From a virus, in the UHGV virus genome UHGV-0102868: a DNA stretch of 34,597 bases; one strand, given 5' to 3'. The notes beneath the pieces are model-generated. The model saw only the letters and a list, made by a program, of their open reading frames with translations. It was not told the origin of the DNA and ran no database searches. Shown here in pieces: positions 3,326 through 10,528 of this stretch (within the stretch, counting starts at the first letter, position 1; each line of letters starts with the position of its first letter). A program made the translations under genes and the position numbers.

Positions 3326-3818
3326 TTACCAGGCACTGCGAATGGCGGCAGAAAATGCAACACCAGGCGAATGGTGTACTGATGACTACTATGGGGTAAT
3401 TGCTGATGCCGGACTGAATGGCAATTACTACATAGCATTATGCGCAGGACCAGATAAGCGCGCCAATAAGCGATTCATAGCCGCAGCCAATCCGGCTGCT
3501 GTGCTGGCATTACTGGATGAACTGGAAGCAGCAAAAAAGCGCATTGCAGAACTGGAAGCACGGGAAATAAAACCAGCCAAAGGCGAAGTTCTTGTCGTTG
3601 TATCTGGTTTTACTGGTTGCGGAAAAAGCGCCATTGCCGGGGAAATAGAAATCGCGATGAAGGCTATTGGTGTGCCGGTTAAGTGGACTAATGGCGATGC
3701 AGAAAAGCGCATGACCGGCGCTGACTGGCTGACAGCAATTGAGATGTACAAACCAACTGTGCGCATTGTGGAAGTTAATGTGCCACGCGTCGCTGGCGTT
3801 CGCATCAAAGGAGAGTGA
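3312..3818 (+). CDS. Ead/Ea22-like phage protein
   Basis: GTG start at 3312 inside the second copy of the GGAGGCAACCAGTGAGC junction motif; the N-terminus (SEINYQALR...) resembles Ead/Ea22-like prophage proteins as I remember them. The ORF-track start at 3228 would lie inside the upstream gene. Confidence 0.55.
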   Translation: MSEINYQALRMAAENATPGEWCTDDYYGVIADAGLNGNYYIALCAGPDKRANKRFIAAANPAAVLALLDELEAAKKRIAELEAREIKPAKGEVLVVVSGFTGCGKSAIAGEIEIAMKAIGVPVKWTNGDAEKRMTGADWLTAIEMYKPTVRIVEVNVPRVAGVRIKGE

Positions 3819-3819
3819 C

Positions 3820-4176
3820 GTGGAAATAAAACCAGAAGATGAGTTAAGTAATATTGTTTTATTTCCGGTAAAAGAGGATGACCCACGTAATCAGGTTAAT
3901 TTTCTTTATGAGCCATCGGAAAGACCATATTGCCATCACGCTTCTGTTCGGGTTGATGAAAAAGAGCGTCAGGTCCGCTGTAAAATCTGCGGTGCAGTTG
4001 TGGAGCCGTTTGACTGGATGCTCTCTGTGGCGAAAAGAGAAACCAGACTGGCAGATGATGTAAGGCTATTGCGTCAGGAGGAACGGGAAAGGCGGAAAAA
4101 TATAGAAAAGTTAATTCAGATTGAGCGTAACGCGAAAGCGCGGATACGCAGGGTGACAAAATCCAGAACTGAATAA
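3820..4176 (+). CDS. hypothetical protein with Cys/His zinc-finger-like motif
   Basis: GTG at 3820, 1 nt after the upstream stop; contains CHH...(14)...CKIC; basic coiled C-terminus. Confidence 0.45.
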   Translation: MEIKPEDELSNIVLFPVKEDDPRNQVNFLYEPSERPYCHHASVRVDEKERQVRCKICGAVVEPFDWMLSVAKRETRLADDVRLLRQEERERRKNIEKLIQIERNAKARIRRVTKSRTE

Positions 4177-4447
4177 TTAAATTTAGCACGGTTAAAAATT
4201 TAATCCTTTACCGGAGGGATTTCTGCACCCTCAGAACATCAGGAGGCCGTCTGAAAGGGCGGAACAGATAATGCTTACGTTGAAACATTTTATCGACATA
4301 CCAACATGGTTAGCCGTCATTGCTTTTGTTAAAATACACATCCACTTTTCTGTGCAATGTTTAACCACTGGTCATATCAAATGGCATTCATGCGAACCAT
4401 GATATAGAATCATGGCTTGAGAGAGTCGATGAAAGCGCAACTATGGT

Positions 4448-5026
4448 ATGAGAGACATTGATGTAAGAAAGGCTGTGCATGCCAAGATTCTGAGAGATCA
4501 TCATAAAGATCCTGACACCCTAATCATTGATGAGTTTACGATGAATCTAGGGGCTAGCAGAGCTGATATAGCAGTGATCAATGGGCTTATACATGGTTAT
4601 GAGTTGAAGAGCAAGAGTGATAACTTGCTCAGATTACCAGCGCAGGTGCAACATTACTCATCAGTGATGGATAAAGTAACTTTGGTTGTCTCTGATTGCC
4701 ATCTTTATGATGCTTTAAGCATAGTTCCATCATGGTGGGGGATAAAGCAAGTTACGCAAGGTGCACGGCAAGGTATCCATTTAAAAACAATTCGAACTAG
4801 CAAGTTGAATCCACAAGTGGACAAACTTTCCTTAACAATGCTTCTTTGGAAAGATGAATTGCTTTCCCTATTAAGTGATGTAGGGGAGCTACAGAATTTG
4901 AAAAATAAACCTAAACGCGTCTTATGGTCAAAACTCGCCAATAGTATGGATGTTGGCGAGCTTCGTGAAGCTGTTCGAGTTAAACTTAAAGCCCGTAAAG
5001 AGTGGCGAGTTGCTCAACAACCTTAG
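4448..5026 (+). CDS. uncharacterised protein, possible PD-(D/E)xK nuclease-fold (ORF-A)
   Basis: 192-aa ORF in visibly AT-rich DNA. Translation has D28/E29, D40 and E52-x-K54 (IIDEF ... RADIAVI ... YELKS), spaced like a restriction-endonuclease-type active site. An extended -10-like TGTTAAAAT lies upstream (4327-4335). Confidence 0.6.
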   Translation: MRDIDVRKAVHAKILRDHHKDPDTLIIDEFTMNLGASRADIAVINGLIHGYELKSKSDNLLRLPAQVQHYSSVMDKVTLVVSDCHLYDALSIVPSWWGIKQVTQGARQGIHLKTIRTSKLNPQVDKLSLTMLLWKDELLSLLSDVGELQNLKNKPKRVLWSKLANSMDVGELREAVRVKLKARKEWRVAQQP

Positions 5027-6083
5027 TTATGTGATGGTTTTGCCCAATCCTACGCCATACCTCTGGGCTACCAAATTTATAGTTACCAGAGGGATTGGCT
5101 TTGTAGGCTTGATACTCGTTTGCATAATATTCTATGTCTCTATCTCCCGCACAGAATGTAGGCCCTGAATATTCTCGATGAGCAAGAATATCCTCACTAT
5201 GTTTACCATATTGTTCATAACCAAAGCGATTAGCTACTCTTCCTCGAAATACCCAAAAGTCATTATCTCCAGAGTATCTGACGCTGGCAGATACGCTAGG
5301 GAATCGCGTCGAAAGCCTATTAAAGTCGGGGTGCTGTACTCCATAATCACTATAAATCACATTTCTGGCAAGTTCTTTTCTATTCATTAAACTCTGCCAT
5401 AAAATCCACTCGATTCGAGGTTGAGAATATAGACCAACAGAAATATCACTGAGATCTGTAGGAAATGAACCCCCAGAAAGAATCACTTTTCTGTATTCAT
5501 TGAGGTGCGCCAGATTGTTTATCAATCCCATTGCCAAAGTATATAGTTCGCCGGAATTAAGTTTATCCTCGGTTAACTCATCTCTTAAGTCAATAATTAT
5601 ATCAATATTTGATAAAGGAATTCCTAGATGATTAATGTAATGCGTTATTAATTGTGGGTTAACCAGATCTAACGTGGTTAATCTCAAGCATATTTCATTC
5701 TGCATTAATTCATCAATCGCTCTTTTATAGTTAGATGGGCGAGTTGGTGAACTGACAGGAATAACTCTTATCCCCATATCTCTAACTTGATTAACCGCAT
5801 TTATTATAGGGTAATGATCTTCAGGAGAAATAAAATGCTCTTCAATTAATAATCCATCAATATAAACACCTTGCATATCTGAGCAAGATTTTGAGACTTT
5901 CTTTCCGAACTCTATAAGAGTCTCGTTATAACTCTTTAAGGCAATACCTGAATCAGGGTCAATTGGCACTGGTTCAATTTCGAGTAATGGCAAAATTTTT
6001 GATTTCTTTTCAATGGATAGCTGCGATAAAGCTGATAACTCAGAACGTTTCGCTTTCAGAATAGGAATATATGAAATTGCCAT
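4986..6083 (-). CDS. uncharacterised 365-aa protein (ORF-B), convergent partner of ORF-A
   Basis: Long uninterrupted minus-strand ORF, the only convincing minus-strand gene in the window. AT-rich. Its 3' end overlaps the ORF-A 3' end by 41 bp. No motif I can name with confidence. Confidence 0.7.
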   Translation of the reverse strand: MAISYIPILKAKRSELSALSQLSIEKKSKILPLLEIEPVPIDPDSGIALKSYNETLIEFGKKVSKSCSDMQGVYIDGLLIEEHFISPEDHYPIINAVNQVRDMGIRVIPVSSPTRPSNYKRAIDELMQNEICLRLTTLDLVNPQLITHYINHLGIPLSNIDIIIDLRDELTEDKLNSGELYTLAMGLINNLAHLNEYRKVILSGGSFPTDLSDISVGLYSQPRIEWILWQSLMNRKELARNVIYSDYGVQHPDFNRLSTRFPSVSASVRYSGDNDFWVFRGRVANRFGYEQYGKHSEDILAHREYSGPTFCAGDRDIEYYANEYQAYKANPSGNYKFGSPEVWRRIGQNHHITKVVEQLATLYGL

Positions 6084-6435
6084 GTTAATACCTTATACAG
6101 AATCAATTAACAATTAATGGTTCTTCGGACATTGAAATTTATATCGCAAAAATTGGCAAACTCTCCTCGACTACTCACTTGTGGGTATCCTGGCGTAAAA
6201 GGAATGACTTGGCAATACCCGGTGTGATCATAAGTCATTGAAAATGATCATTTTTATCAGTCTTTCTTCCATGATGAATGCTAATGCCATTTGATTTGTT
6301 GAGGTAAAAACTGTTAAAAATCAAAACGATGTAATTGAAATGAACGTTCGGTAGCATTCACGCTTTAAATGTTTCTTTTGTGCTGATTGGATGAATTTTG
6401 GTCACTTATGATGAGAGATGTTGCAGGAAAAGAAG

Positions 6436-6464
6436 TTGGCATTGATCTATTGGATAGTTAGAAT
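6436..6464 (+). promoter_or_regulatory. candidate sigma70 promoter of the hok mRNA
   Basis: -35 TTGGCA (6436-6441), 17-nt spacer, -10 TAGAAT (6459-6464). The predicted start near 6471 coincides with the 5' element that pairs with the mRNA 3' end. Confidence 0.55.
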
Positions 6465-6639
6465 TGCTGCGGGTGCTTGAGGCTATCTGCCTCAGGCATG
6501 AACACCAAAGGCAGATAGAGAAAAGCCCCAGTTAACATTACGCGTCCTGCAAGACGCTTAACATTAATCTGAGGCTCAATCCATGCTGAACACATGTAGG
6601 TTAGCCTCTTACGTGCCGAAAGGCAAGGAGAAGCAGGCT

Positions 6640-6795
6640 ATGAAGCAGCAAAAGGCGATGTTAATCGCCCTGATCGTCATCTGTTTAACCATCATTGTGA
6701 CGGCACTGGTAACGAGGAAAGACCTCTGCGAGGTACGAATCCGAACCGGCCAGACGGAGGTCGCTGTCTTCACAGCTTACGAACCTGAGGAGTAA
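6640..6795 (+). CDS. hok: Hok/Gef-family type I toxin
   Basis: 51-aa product MKQQKAMLIALIVICLTIIVTALVTRKDLCEVRIRTGQTEVAVFTAYEPEE is a typical Hok/Gef membrane toxin (closest in my memory to HokD/RelF). RBS AAGGAG at 6624-6629. Confidence 0.85.
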   Translation: MKQQKAMLIALIVICLTIIVTALVTRKDLCEVRIRTGQTEVAVFTAYEPEE

Positions 6796-6860
6796 GAGAC
6801 CAGGCGGGGTAAACCCCCGCCACCTCTGATGTGTCAGGCATCCTCAACGCACCCGCACTT

Positions 6861-6884
6861 AACCCGCCTTGGCGGGTTTTTTTG
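6861..6884 (+). terminator. rho-independent terminator at the 3' end of the hok mRNA
   Basis: GC hairpin CCCGC-cttg-GCGGG followed by a T7 run. Confidence 0.6.
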
Positions 6885-7025
6885 TAATTGATAAAAAAAT
6901 TAACCAAAATGGTTTACATAAAATTCCTTTATGGTAAATTGATTCGCATGTAAGGGGGGAGCACACTACCGATCATACCCTCAACGAGCGCGCTCTATTA
7001 CTGACACTAAACTGAGGAATTACCT

Positions 7026-7379
7026 ATGGCACTCACTGAATTCGGTAAGGCCGTGAGAAAAGCGAGAATTGATACAGGTTATACACTTCTTACCATGGCA
7101 AAAGCATTGGGCACCACACCAGCTTTCTTGAGTGGGCTTGAAACTGGAGCAAAAAAGATTCCAGCAAAATGGGTTACGGCAATAAATGATTTACTTGCTG
7201 AGCAAGGGTACAAAATTGAAAACCTGGATTTGTTAGCCAATATTTCAAATGAGTCAATACCTGTTGAAGGTTTACCCTTGCAGCAACAGATGTTGGTTGC
7301 AGGATTTGCTAAATCAGAATTCACACATGAAGAATTGAAAAAGTTCGCTGAGCTTTTAGCGGAAATCAATAAGAAATAA
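7026..7379 (+). CDS. XRE-family helix-turn-helix transcriptional regulator
   Basis: N-terminal HTH-like segment (TGYTLLTMAKALGTTPAFLSGLETG); RBS GAGGA 7 nt upstream; the next gene starts 16 nt after its stop. Confidence 0.75.
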   Translation: MALTEFGKAVRKARIDTGYTLLTMAKALGTTPAFLSGLETGAKKIPAKWVTAINDLLAEQGYKIENLDLLANISNESIPVEGLPLQQQMLVAGFAKSEFTHEELKKFAELLAEINKK

Positions 7380-7395
7380 TTTTGGGGCCAATTTT

Positions 7396-7878
7396 ATGTA
7401 TCAAATGCGAGGGACAAGAGTCCAGCCATTAACCGAAATTGACATCAAAAACAAAGCTATAAATGCCTGTTTTGCTTTGGGATTTACAAGCAAGTATAAA
7501 TACCGTAGGCGTCCGAAGAGATTTGATATTGCTTTAGAAAAGCTGTCAGAGTGGAATATTGTTTTGGAGCCTATTGATGAGGCTGATTGGCTGGGACTTA
7601 CTCTTGGCTTAACCATTGGACATTGTGAGCCAGAGACATTGACAATAAGAGTGCCAAACCATATTTATGAAATGGCTTGTGCAGGAGAACGTAGTGCTTT
7701 ATTTGTTGTTTTTCATGAGTTAGGTCATTTGCTTCTTCAGCATAAACCAGCACTGCATTTTTCAAATACCCCACCGGAGCAAAACGAAGACTCTGAGTGG
7801 CAGGCTGATTTATTTGCAGATGTGATGTTGGAAAAATTAGGATATGAAACAGCACAACTTTGCTTCGATTTTTATTAA
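7396..7878 (+). CDS. ImmA/IrrE-family Zn metallopeptidase (HEXXH)
   Basis: Translation contains FHELGHLLLQH (HEXXH) in a 160-aa protein directly downstream of an XRE HTH gene, the usual ImmR/ImmA-type arrangement. Confidence 0.75.
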   Translation: MYQMRGTRVQPLTEIDIKNKAINACFALGFTSKYKYRRRPKRFDIALEKLSEWNIVLEPIDEADWLGLTLGLTIGHCEPETLTIRVPNHIYEMACAGERSALFVVFHELGHLLLQHKPALHFSNTPPEQNEDSEWQADLFADVMLEKLGYETAQLCFDFY

Positions 7879-8000
7879 AAAGCCCTGCAATAGCAGGGCT
7901 TAGATTCGGAAAGCCTAGGAAACTTTCCTGTGTATGATGGAGATCCCCACCGCTACACTTAGAATTGACAGAAGTGAGTCTAGCGGTTCTCTCAATAAAT

Positions 8001-8028
8001 TGCAACCTGTATGGGGATACAGGTTGCA
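8001..8028 (+). repeat. perfect 12-bp inverted repeat with a 4-nt GGGG loop
   Basis: TGCAACCTGTAT-GGGG-ATACAGGTTGCA read directly; it sits just upstream of the RBS and start of the small Zn-ribbon ORF. Confidence 0.7.
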
Positions 8029-8044
8029 GGGAGATGCTGTTGTT

Positions 8045-8194
8045 ATGGCTATGAAAACTTGTAAGAAATGTGGGAAACCGTGTGAAATTATTTTTCGTTA
8101 CTCTGCCTGTATCAACGGAGTTATGCGGTATGCGAGAAAAGGGCATCCTTTTCCGATTCCTGTCTGCGATTGCTCTGAACTTGGTGTCGCATAA
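8045..8194 (+). CDS. small Cys-rich (zinc-ribbon-like) protein, 49 aa
   Basis: ATG 8045 with RBS GGGAGA (8030-8035); CKKCGKPC ... CDC motifs; followed by a terminator. The ORF-track start at 7934 would read through the inverted repeat. Confidence 0.4.
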   Translation: MAMKTCKKCGKPCEIIFRYSACINGVMRYARKGHPFPIPVCDCSELGVA

Positions 8195-8202
8195 TGATCT
8201 AA

Positions 8203-8226
8203 AACCCGCTTTGGCGGGTTTTTTAC
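8203..8226 (+). terminator. rho-independent terminator closing the accessory island
   Basis: CCCGC-tttg-GCGGG hairpin followed by TTTTTT. Confidence 0.55.
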
Positions 8227-8386
8227 TTTTACAGATCAAGTTTTAGCCGATTCCTCCATTAAACCGACCTTCGTTTGTTGATAAGCGGGTATGCCTGACT
8301 AGAATCGATTCACTTAAGTAGCGCGCAGGGAGAAGAGGGATGGACCCCGAGCAGGGGAGTGCTATTTATCTGGAAGGATTCTGTTG

Positions 8387-8560
8387 ATGAAAATCGAAGA
8401 ATTGCGTGAAATTTTTAGTGAAAATGGCCTCTATGCTGTGCGCGTTGAGAATGGAGACGTTATCTACACAACGTTAATTCCTGATGATCATGTGATTTTA
8501 TCTATCGAGGCATTCATTGAATATCTGGAAAGGCTCGGTTTCAAGGTGGTTCGGGAATGA
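8387..8560 (+). CDS. small hypothetical protein (57 aa), absent from the ORF track
   Basis: ATG 8387 with RBS GGAAGGA 9 nt upstream; 57 sense codons ending TGA 8558-8560. Confidence 0.35.
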   Translation: MKIEELREIFSENGLYAVRVENGDVIYTTLIPDDHVILSIEAFIEYLERLGFKVVRE

Positions 8561-10374: not shown

Positions 10375-10450
<76 letters not shown>

Positions 10451-10453
10451 TAT

Positions 10454-10528
<75 letters not shown>

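Follow-up and report, generated by a model that had tools for sequence, protein, structure and literature searches.

The window analysed here is the 34,597-nucleotide stretch of the UHGV virus genome UHGV-0102868. Its positions 6436-6884 hold an intact hok/mok/sok type I toxin-antitoxin locus, in which every element named in the preliminary description was found at the coordinates given for it (Table 1). The window as a whole corresponds to a Rac-like prophage of Escherichia coli, and it contains trkG, replication genes of the ydaT/ydaV type and head genes similar to those of P22. When a 500-bp region covering the locus was compared by BLAST with E. coli chromosomes, it was matched at up to 96% DNA identity by sequences annotated as hokD, and matches were obtained in 4726 of 5426 complete E. 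coli genomes searched. The region was also matched at about 95% identity in lambdoid phages, among them 933W, whose record carries annotations for mokW, hokW and the antisense sokW. We consider it very likely that this hok/mok/sok type I module is intact, belongs to the hokD/hokW lineage and is carried as cargo by a Rac-like lambdoid E. coli prophage. It belongs to an already known kind, the closest relatives of which are annotated and experimentally characterised.

Table 1. Elements of the hok/mok/sok locus and neighbouring cargo genes, in window coordinates.
Feature	Positions	Strand	Sequence, basis or remark
cll-like gene and Beta-protein/PD-Lambda-2_C-like gene	4448-6083		Same cargo slot as hok
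hok/mok promoter	6436-6464	+	TTGGCA (6436-6441), 17 nt, TAGAAT (6459-6464); promoter scan, 10/12
Predicted full-length hok mRNA, 413 nt	6471-6883	+	Start: promoter and Rfam model position 1; end: intrinsic terminator
tac (translational activator element)	6471-6482	+	GGGUGCUUGAGG; pairs with fbi (full-length fold) or ucb (trimmed fold); covaries with fbi
Metastable 5' hairpin of the nascent transcript	6473-6499	+	6473-6483 paired with 6489-6499; inverted repeat I9
Stable 5' hairpin	6483-6518	+	CUAUCUGCCU / AGGCAGAUAG; in full-length and trimmed folds
Sok antisense RNA, 71 nt (predicted)	6521-6591	-	Homology to sokW; 5' tail, long hairpin, UUUU
ucb / anti-SD box	6523-6529	+	AAGCCCC; pairs with mok SD region (full-length) or tac (trimmed)
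mok Shine-Dalgarno (SD)	6571-6574	+	GAGG; precedes ATG 6583 by 8 nt
mok reading frame, 70 codons, in frame with hok	6583-6795	+	ORF list
Sok promoter (candidate)	6598-6626	-	TTGCCT (6626-6621), 17 nt, TAACCT (6603-6598); 7/12 consensus
dcb, mok SD partner in the trimmed (active) fold	6603-6608	+	Partners in the minimum free energy (MFE) structure
hok Shine-Dalgarno	6625-6630	+	AAGGAG; opposite-strand overlap with the Sok -35
hok toxin gene, 51 aa	6640-6795	+	Pfam PF01848 HOK_GEF
Small hairpin with UACG (Tyr47 codon, A6779) in the loop	6773-6787	+	Covariation
GC-rich hairpin just past the stop codon	6803-6821	+	Fold; active, processed mRNA presumed to end here
fbi (fold-back inhibitory element)	6842-6854	+	CCUCAA(C)GCACCC; fold, position conservation, covariation
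Intrinsic terminator of hok mRNA	6861-6883	+	Terminator scan, fold
HTH and M78-peptidase pair	7026-7878		Same cargo slot as hok

The 51-residue product encoded at 6640-6795, which the preliminary description had assigned to the Hok family, matched the Pfam profile PF01848 (HOK_GEF) over its full length (1-42), at 1.2e-23 and with 82.8 bits for a cut-off of 22. With 50 of its 51 residues identical to those of K-12 HokD and 46 of 51 identical to those of HokW, this assignment was confirmed. In PADLOC, no model matching Hok was found. The hok ATG is preceded at a distance of 9 nt by the AAGGAG motif, and the CAAGGAG stretch is nearly invariant across the aligned loci described below. For the HokW relative, it has been reported that the protein stops growth, also when expressed alone from pBAD24, that sokW RNA is detected and neutralises HokW in a partly RNase III- and Hfq-dependent manner, and that a mutation of the sokW -10 releases toxicity (PMC8621323). 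Judged by this relative, the Hok of the present allele would probably be a toxin neutralised by Sok.

The conservation of the locus was followed in a set of 66 fetched loci encoding Hok relatives, taken from one genome per species. In each usable locus, the tac motif and its best 3' UTR partner were located. Fifteen of the 66 loci were left out, the tac motif being missing or the contig cut. Six others were set aside from the pairing tally: the 3' UTR of L047 contains masked N, L052 has a 73-aa ORF, and the ORFs of L063 and L065-L067 are truncated. The tally was made on 43 combinations of tac and 3' UTR, all different from one another and all from loci whose toxin ORF is intact, in which the pairing register of each sequence was fitted by duplex folding, a procedure that leans towards pairing. 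In addition, a fixed alignment of 44 loci was computed with MAFFT. In several loci, a downstream copy of GCTTCAGG had been taken for the tac motif; this was the wrong copy, and it was replaced by the true tac.

On the plus strand, the promoter proposed in the preliminary description (TTGGCA/TAGAAT) was present with a 10/12 consensus match. It is one of two promoter-like sites returned by a consensus scan of 6300-7000, and no other strong site of the sigma-70 type occurs on that side. Its -10 is conserved in 933W, and the homology to most relatives starts at 6459. The transcript probably starts at G6471, since the promoter geometry, the Rfam model (of which G6471 is the first position) and the R1-type sequence (of which it is the equivalent of the first G) all suggest it; this fits the start near 6471 that had been put forward. 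At the other end, the intrinsic terminator is shared with K-12 hokD and with the nearest relatives. The predicted 413-nt RNA folds at -167.2 kcal/mol (z = -7.0).

A covariance-model search, by which the proposed hok-type leader could be recognised, gave a full-length match of the leader to Rfam RF01794 (6471-6645, plus strand, model positions 1-157 of 157) with 118.1 bits for a gathering score of 59 and an E-value of 1.5e-26. This family is named 'sok'. It models the sense strand of the hok leader and not the antisense RNA, because its consensus opens at the mRNA 5' end (GGGUGCUUGA...) and closes in the hok AUG. The match was thus rejected as evidence for a Sok RNA on the plus strand.

On the opposite strand, an antisense Sok-like RNA had been expected, without its ends being fixed, together with a weak candidate promoter. 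The sokW annotated in the 933W record corresponds to window positions 6591 to 6521 on the minus strand, which by homology places both ends of the putative RNA. The two sequences are identical at 70 of 71 positions, and the single difference falls in the hairpin loop. The predicted Sok folds at -31.5 kcal/mol (z = -6.0); its 5' tail stays single-stranded and is complementary to the start of mok, where it overlaps ATG 6583 by 9 nt. The candidate promoter TTGCCT-17-TAACCT is indeed present and is weak; because it matches the consensus at only 7 of 12 positions, it was not listed by the generic promoter scan, and its identification therefore rests on homology and positional conservation. The 39 nt upstream of the Sok start (6592-6630) are identical at 39 of 39 positions to the sokW promoter region, and the position of the promoter is kept in 44/44 aligned loci (TTGCCT/TTGACC, a spacer of about 17 nt, and TAACCT/TAATCT or variants). 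At the level of the sequence, an antisense Sok with its own promoter is thus supported and is predicted for this copy.

The frame of mok had been singled out in the preliminary description as being the same as that of hok, in contrast to plasmid R1, where mok is out of frame. The 70-codon frame from ATG 6583 is present, the mok and hok ATGs being separated by 57 nt. The statement on R1 agrees with the R1-type plasmid locus, in which the two ATGs lie 58 nt apart. As a peculiarity of this copy, however, the in-frame arrangement did not stand, since it is also annotated in 933W mokW/hokW and in K-12 mokC/hokC. In the 44 aligned loci, the GAGGC of the mok SD is invariant and the mok ATG is conserved in 39; it lies at 57 nt in 29 of the 44 relatives and at 56 nt in two, and a spacing of 58 nt was found in Kluyvera and in some Escherichia and Enterobacteriaceae loci. 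An in-frame mok is therefore ordinary and is the commoner arrangement among the sampled chromosomal and prophage relatives. As the spacing varies between 57, 58 and 56 nt, the frame does not define the family; and since it is not conserved, the leader peptide, the first 20 codons of which are identical to those of mokW, is unlikely to have been selected as a protein.

These observations also bear on the nature of the toxic product. With no stop codon between the two in-frame ATGs, any ribosome that initiates at mok has to produce a Hok with an N-terminal extension, and the same arrangement is seen in mokW/hokW and in K-12 mokC/hokC. The toxic product could then be the 70-aa Mok-Hok protein initiated at ATG 6583, with little or no separate initiation at ATG 6640. 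We regard this as improbable, because close relatives carry the same ATG at 58 or 56 nt, hence out of frame, in a leader that is otherwise conserved, and R1-type loci have it at 58 nt; the N-terminal extension therefore cannot be required for toxicity. In addition, the hok ATG possesses a strong Shine-Dalgarno sequence of its own, and the toxicity of HokW produced alone (PMC8621323) also argues against a need for the longer form. The 51-aa Hok, initiated at ATG 6640, is thus retained as the probable toxin.

The two ends of the mRNA are complementary to each other. The sequence GCGGGTGCTTGAGG (6469-6482) can pair with CCTCAACGCACCCGC (6842-6856) with one bulged C at 6848, and a repeat finder returned a perfect 9-mer core in the same place (6468-6476/6849-6857). 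A 14-bp pairing with a one-nucleotide bulge had been announced for the mRNA. This holds for the complementarity in the DNA; since 6471 is the probable first nucleotide of the transcript, the duplex in the RNA probably consists of 12 bp and the bulge (6471-6482 with 6842-6854). The folding of the locus bore out the pairing itself, which is contained in the MFE structure of the 413-nt RNA, each of the 12 pairs having a probability of 0.97-1.0 in the partition function of the full-length RNA.

A strong tac/fbi duplex (-17.9 kcal/mol or better) was found in 41 of the 43 distinct related loci, always 45-56 nt past the stop codon. The loci that bear it come from Escherichia, Shigella, Kluyvera, Citrobacter, Pseudocitrobacter, Pantoea and Photorhabdus. 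At three positions of the helix, compensatory changes were observed among the 43 loci: U-A in 28, C-G in 11 and U.G in 3 at position 4; G-C in 34, G.U in 8 and A-U in 1 at position 11; and G-C in 25 and A-U in 16 at position 12. Moreover, when tac types were exchanged between loci, the locus's own type was bound better than the mean of the foreign types by 40 of the 43 3' UTRs. The two exceptions without strong pairing are L019 and L057. L057 appears decayed. L019 occupies the position of K-12 hokC, where IS186 lies 20 bp past the stop codon, and this insertion is the likely reason for the missing pairing.

In the fixed 44-locus alignment, RNAalifold returned the competing tac/ucb helix and not tac/fbi, likely because the two helices compete and because the Photorhabdus loci, which have no bulge, shift the register. 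The named pairing was therefore tested directly, on the alignment and sequence by sequence. In the alignment, 90.6% of the tac/fbi cells were paired, compared with 33-54% when the 3' partner was slid by 1-3 columns, and the observed covariation score was matched by no shuffle. The fixed-column count understates the pairing, because Photorhabdus-type loci without the bulged C are out of register in the distal half.

Could the complementarity of the two ends be a chance match, or simply belong to the terminator region, and have no function in the mRNA? The RNAalifold result might be read in this way, and a few shuffled 3' UTRs, though only 2 of 2000, bind the tac 12-mer as well as the natural one does. 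Such an origin nevertheless seems extremely improbable: the position of the pairing is kept in 41 of 43 loci, three positions of the helix show compensatory changes, the paired fraction drops in the slid controls, and the same element is established in R1 (PMC9841398). The covariation effectively refutes chance. Since covariation was found, the 5'-3' pairing proposed for the locus is supported as a conserved element of the mRNA.

The leader contains further structures. In the first 30 nt, a hairpin that sequesters tac was predicted (-19.6 kcal/mol, z = -5.1). Behind it, the stem CTATCTGCCT/AGGCAGATAG (arms 6483-6492 and 6509-6518), which had been noted before, is present in both folds, and it covaries across the 44 loci, with 93% of the cells paired and three covarying pairs. 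In the full-length fold, ucb pairs with the mok SD region 6570-6576; the extension at the base of this helix covaries (A-U in 30 and G-C in 14 of the 44 loci). In the 3'-trimmed RNA 6471-6826, tac is predicted to pair with ucb (P of about 0.77-0.80) and the mok SD with 6603-6608. The box ucb is invariant in the 44 loci and the tac/ucb helix is paired at 99.4%; owing to this invariance, covariation neither supports nor refutes tac/ucb. The GAGGC/GCCUC of the SD/dcb helix is likewise invariant, and the same helix is found in the Rfam consensus, the structure of which is that predicted for the trimmed fold. Compensatory changes across the 44 loci were also seen in the hairpin complementary to the Sok terminator. 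The hairpin past the stop codon is paired at 98-99% and covaries across loci; judged by analogy with R1, it is presumed to act as an exonuclease barrier and to form the 3' end of the processed mRNA. Upon trimming of the full-length RNA, a switch from tac/fbi plus ucb/SD to tac/ucb plus SD/dcb is thus predicted by the thermodynamic folding.

The same switch belongs to the model established for plasmid R1, in which tac and fbi form a clamp and ucb masks the mok SD, tac/ucb and SD/dcb being formed after 3' processing; in addition, the nascent RNA forms a metastable 5' hairpin (PMC9841398). The following pathway may be proposed for the present locus. An mRNA of about 413 nt (6471-6883) would encode the 51-aa membrane toxin Hok. 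In the full-length molecule, tac would be clamped to fbi and the mok ribosome-binding site masked by ucb, and the folding model thus predicts that this form would not be translated. Sok, transcribed in cis from the minus strand (6591 to 6521), would face the mok start over its 9-nt overlap. As in R1, slow trimming of the 3' end back to the hairpin 6803-6821 would remove fbi, after which tac would pair with ucb and the mok SD would enter the target hairpin. By the same analogy, binding of Sok to the trimmed RNA would lead to cleavage by RNase III; once the unstable Sok has disappeared, translation of mok would permit that of hok, and membrane damage would follow.

Among the known systems, the closest is hokW-mokW-sokW of the Stx2 phages 933W/Sakai prophage 5 (AF125520; Takada et al. 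2021, PMC8621323), with 388 identical bases between window positions 6459-6864 (406 nt) and 409 nt of 933W. From the -10 through the mok start, the two sequences are near-identical; the two loci have the same mok leader peptide, tac and fbi, and both lie in a lambdoid prophage. They differ in several respects. Five of the 51 residues of HokW are changed (V18I, and a C-terminal TAYEPEE against VDYESEK), the window locus has a post-stop hairpin shorter by 3 nt, and the upstream -35 region is different; right after fbi, 933W diverges and does not carry the terminator found here. The prophage backbone is Rac-like in the window and Stx-type in 933W.

The K-12 hokD gene (relF, Qin prophage) encodes a toxin identical to the present one at 50 of 51 residues. 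Between the hok SD and the terminator, a stretch in which the post-stop hairpin and fbi are included, the DNA of the two loci is near-identical. However, K-12 hokD lies directly behind relBE and the whole leader is missing, with no tac, ucb, mok start or Sok, whereas the window copy is complete. In K-12 hokC(gef)/mokC/sokC, mok is in frame 57 nt upstream with a shared stop and Sok overlaps the mok start by 9 nt, as here, but its Hok belongs to a different subfamily (82% identity; L019), IS186 follows the stop codon in K-12, and the tac/fbi pairing is absent from the K-12-type locus L019.

The hok/mok/sok (parB) locus of plasmid R1 has the same order of parts, namely promoter, tac, 5' hairpin, ucb, Sok terminator complement, mok SD and ATG, Sok promoter inside the leader, hok SD, hok, post-stop hairpin, fbi and terminator, and its predicted folding pathway is the same (PMC9841398). 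Its tac reads GGCGCUUGAGG. The R1 Hok is only 44% identical to HokW, the relative to which the window Hok is identical at 46 of 51 residues (PMC8621323), and mok is located 58 nt upstream (+1 frame) in R1 against 57 nt in frame here. Finally, R1 hok/mok/sok is a plasmid stabilisation locus, and the present one is prophage cargo.

Several chromosomes match the prophage at 98.6% identity over 75% of 25 kb; in these, the hok-bearing stretch, about 3.8-8.5 kb, is replaced by a methyltransferase and an ATPase; the stretch is therefore a variable cargo slot. The locus provides a further case in which hok is found beside candidate defence genes in the part of a lambdoid prophage where the cargo varies, and this placement is relevant to the question of which function prophage hok loci serve.

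For hokW-sokW, it was reported that sokW disappears upon induction with mitomycin C and that the locus advances lysis, its deletion halving phage release (PMC8621323). Most likely, by comparison with this 95%-identical system, the present locus would help host lysis and phage release on prophage induction; stabilisation of the prophage and exclusion of other phages are alternative roles.

It may also be envisaged that the locus, intact in its sequence, is physiologically silent, being transcribed without ever giving enough Hok, as proposed for K-12-type chromosomal loci. According to reports cited in the preprint 10.1101/2025.08.07.668861, intact chromosomal hok loci showed no post-segregational killing or activation by rifampicin, the absence of post-segregational killing being reported there for hokA (E. 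coli C), hokB (K-12) and hokC (ECOR24); the physiological output of such loci may therefore be small. Redundancy is also high, since E. coli genomes contain a median of 2 and up to 10 places matching the region. We nevertheless hold silence to be unlikely here. All the regulatory elements are intact and visibly constrained, unlike those of K-12 hokD, which has lost its leader, and of K-12 hokC, where IS186 lies close to the stop codon; and hokW-sokW has measurable phenotypes (PMC8621323).

The discovery value of the locus is small, the system being one of the best-studied RNA-regulated toxin systems. It is, however, a clean and complete example of the hokD lineage and could serve as the intact reference for this subfamily, because the K-12 reference copy is truncated. 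In addition, the classic tac/fbi covariation and the folding switch that is predicted were recovered independently from the 44-locus alignment.

A last feature was observed inside the hok reading frame. The stem of the small hairpin 6773-6787 contains two covarying pairs (C-G in 29 and U-A in 15, and G-C in 26 and A-U in 15 of the 44 loci), and TACGAA is invariant in all 44. A TadA editing site has been reported in hokC/D/E (PMC5630033), to which this hairpin, with A6779, corresponds. It is conceivable, but in our opinion improbable, that the variants with an in-frame mok make a second, functionally distinct Hok isoform and that, together with TadA editing at Tyr47, it tunes the firing of the prophage toxin. 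If this were so, the isoform might differ for example in membrane insertion or timing, and isoform and editing together would set the timing of the toxin during induction or superinfection in an accessory-gene island.

The mok and hok start codons are 57 nt apart and in frame in most of the aligned relatives, as they are in the window (6583-6640). In Kluyvera and some other relatives the spacing is 58 nt, and in two relatives it is 56 nt (this observation was made on loci L013-L015, L018, L020, L021, L030, L033 and L035-L039 of the fetched Hok-encoding loci). In the leader there are single-base indels, which occur in pairs. The frame relation between mok and hok is one that flips within the family, and the RNA elements keep their place. 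The leader of the window is recognized on the + strand by the Rfam model RF01794 ('sok antitoxin (CssrC)'), which, despite its name, models the hok mRNA leader, starting at the mRNA 5' end and finishing with the hok AUG; the true antisense RNA corresponds to the reverse complement of just one part of this model.

When the K-12 hokD locus (L072, 520-860) was compared with window 6560-6884, the two were found to be near-identical from the hok SD to the post-stop hairpin, fbi and the terminator. K-12 hokD lacks tac, ucb, the mok start and Sok because relBE abuts hokD, and its fbi is therefore an orphan. In five further loci from E. coli and Shigella (L005, L006, L011, L054 and L064), whose Hok is 86-98% identical to that of the window, no tac motif was found upstream of hok. 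These are probably truncated copies of the K-12 hokD type, or copies disrupted in other ways.

Four other loci (L012, L022, L029 and L068) encode a Hok 93-98% identical to the E. coli-type toxin of the window, on contigs labelled as a Veillonella parvula MAG (22.9 kb), Acinetobacter idrijaensis (275 nt), Xanthomonas pisi (431 nt) and a 'Candidatus Scatousia' MAG (3 kb). These four appear to stem from contamination with E. coli DNA or from mis-binning, and not to be genuine occurrences.

Within the hok coding region, a small hairpin carries in its loop a TACG motif that includes the Tyr47 codon, and two pairs of the hairpin stem covary (C-G in 29 and U-A in 15 loci; G-C in 26 and A-U in 15). 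The sequence TACGAA does not vary among the 44 aligned loci. A TadA A-to-I editing site, changing Tyr46 to Cys, has been reported in hokC, hokD and hokE (PMC5630033), and the TACG loop at Tyr47 matches it.

The hok locus is located inside a variable cargo slot of the Rac-like prophage, which in the closest genomes is occupied by a DNA cytosine methyltransferase and an ATPase in place of the hok region.

Features of the hok locus and of the surrounding prophage (window coordinates)
Feature	Coordinates	Remark
Variable cargo slot	about 3800-8500	contains the hok locus
cll-like gene	4448-5026	neighbour of hok locus
Beta-protein/PD-Lambda-2_C-like gene	4986-6083	neighbour of hok locus
RF01794 match	6471-6645	+ strand
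Hairpin in hok coding region	6773-6787	stem CAG 6773-6775 / CUG 6785-6787
Hok Tyr47 codon	6778-6780	TAC
HTH gene	7026-7379	neighbour of hok locus; pair with weak capH/capP-like matches
M78-peptidase gene	7396-7878	second member of this pair
tRNA-Thr (TGT)	10375-10450	prophage-borne
tRNA-Gly (TCC)	10454-10528	prophage-borne

The two tRNA genes are located upstream of the lysis genes, and related prophages carry either Thr and Gly or Arg and Gly tRNA genes at the equivalent site.
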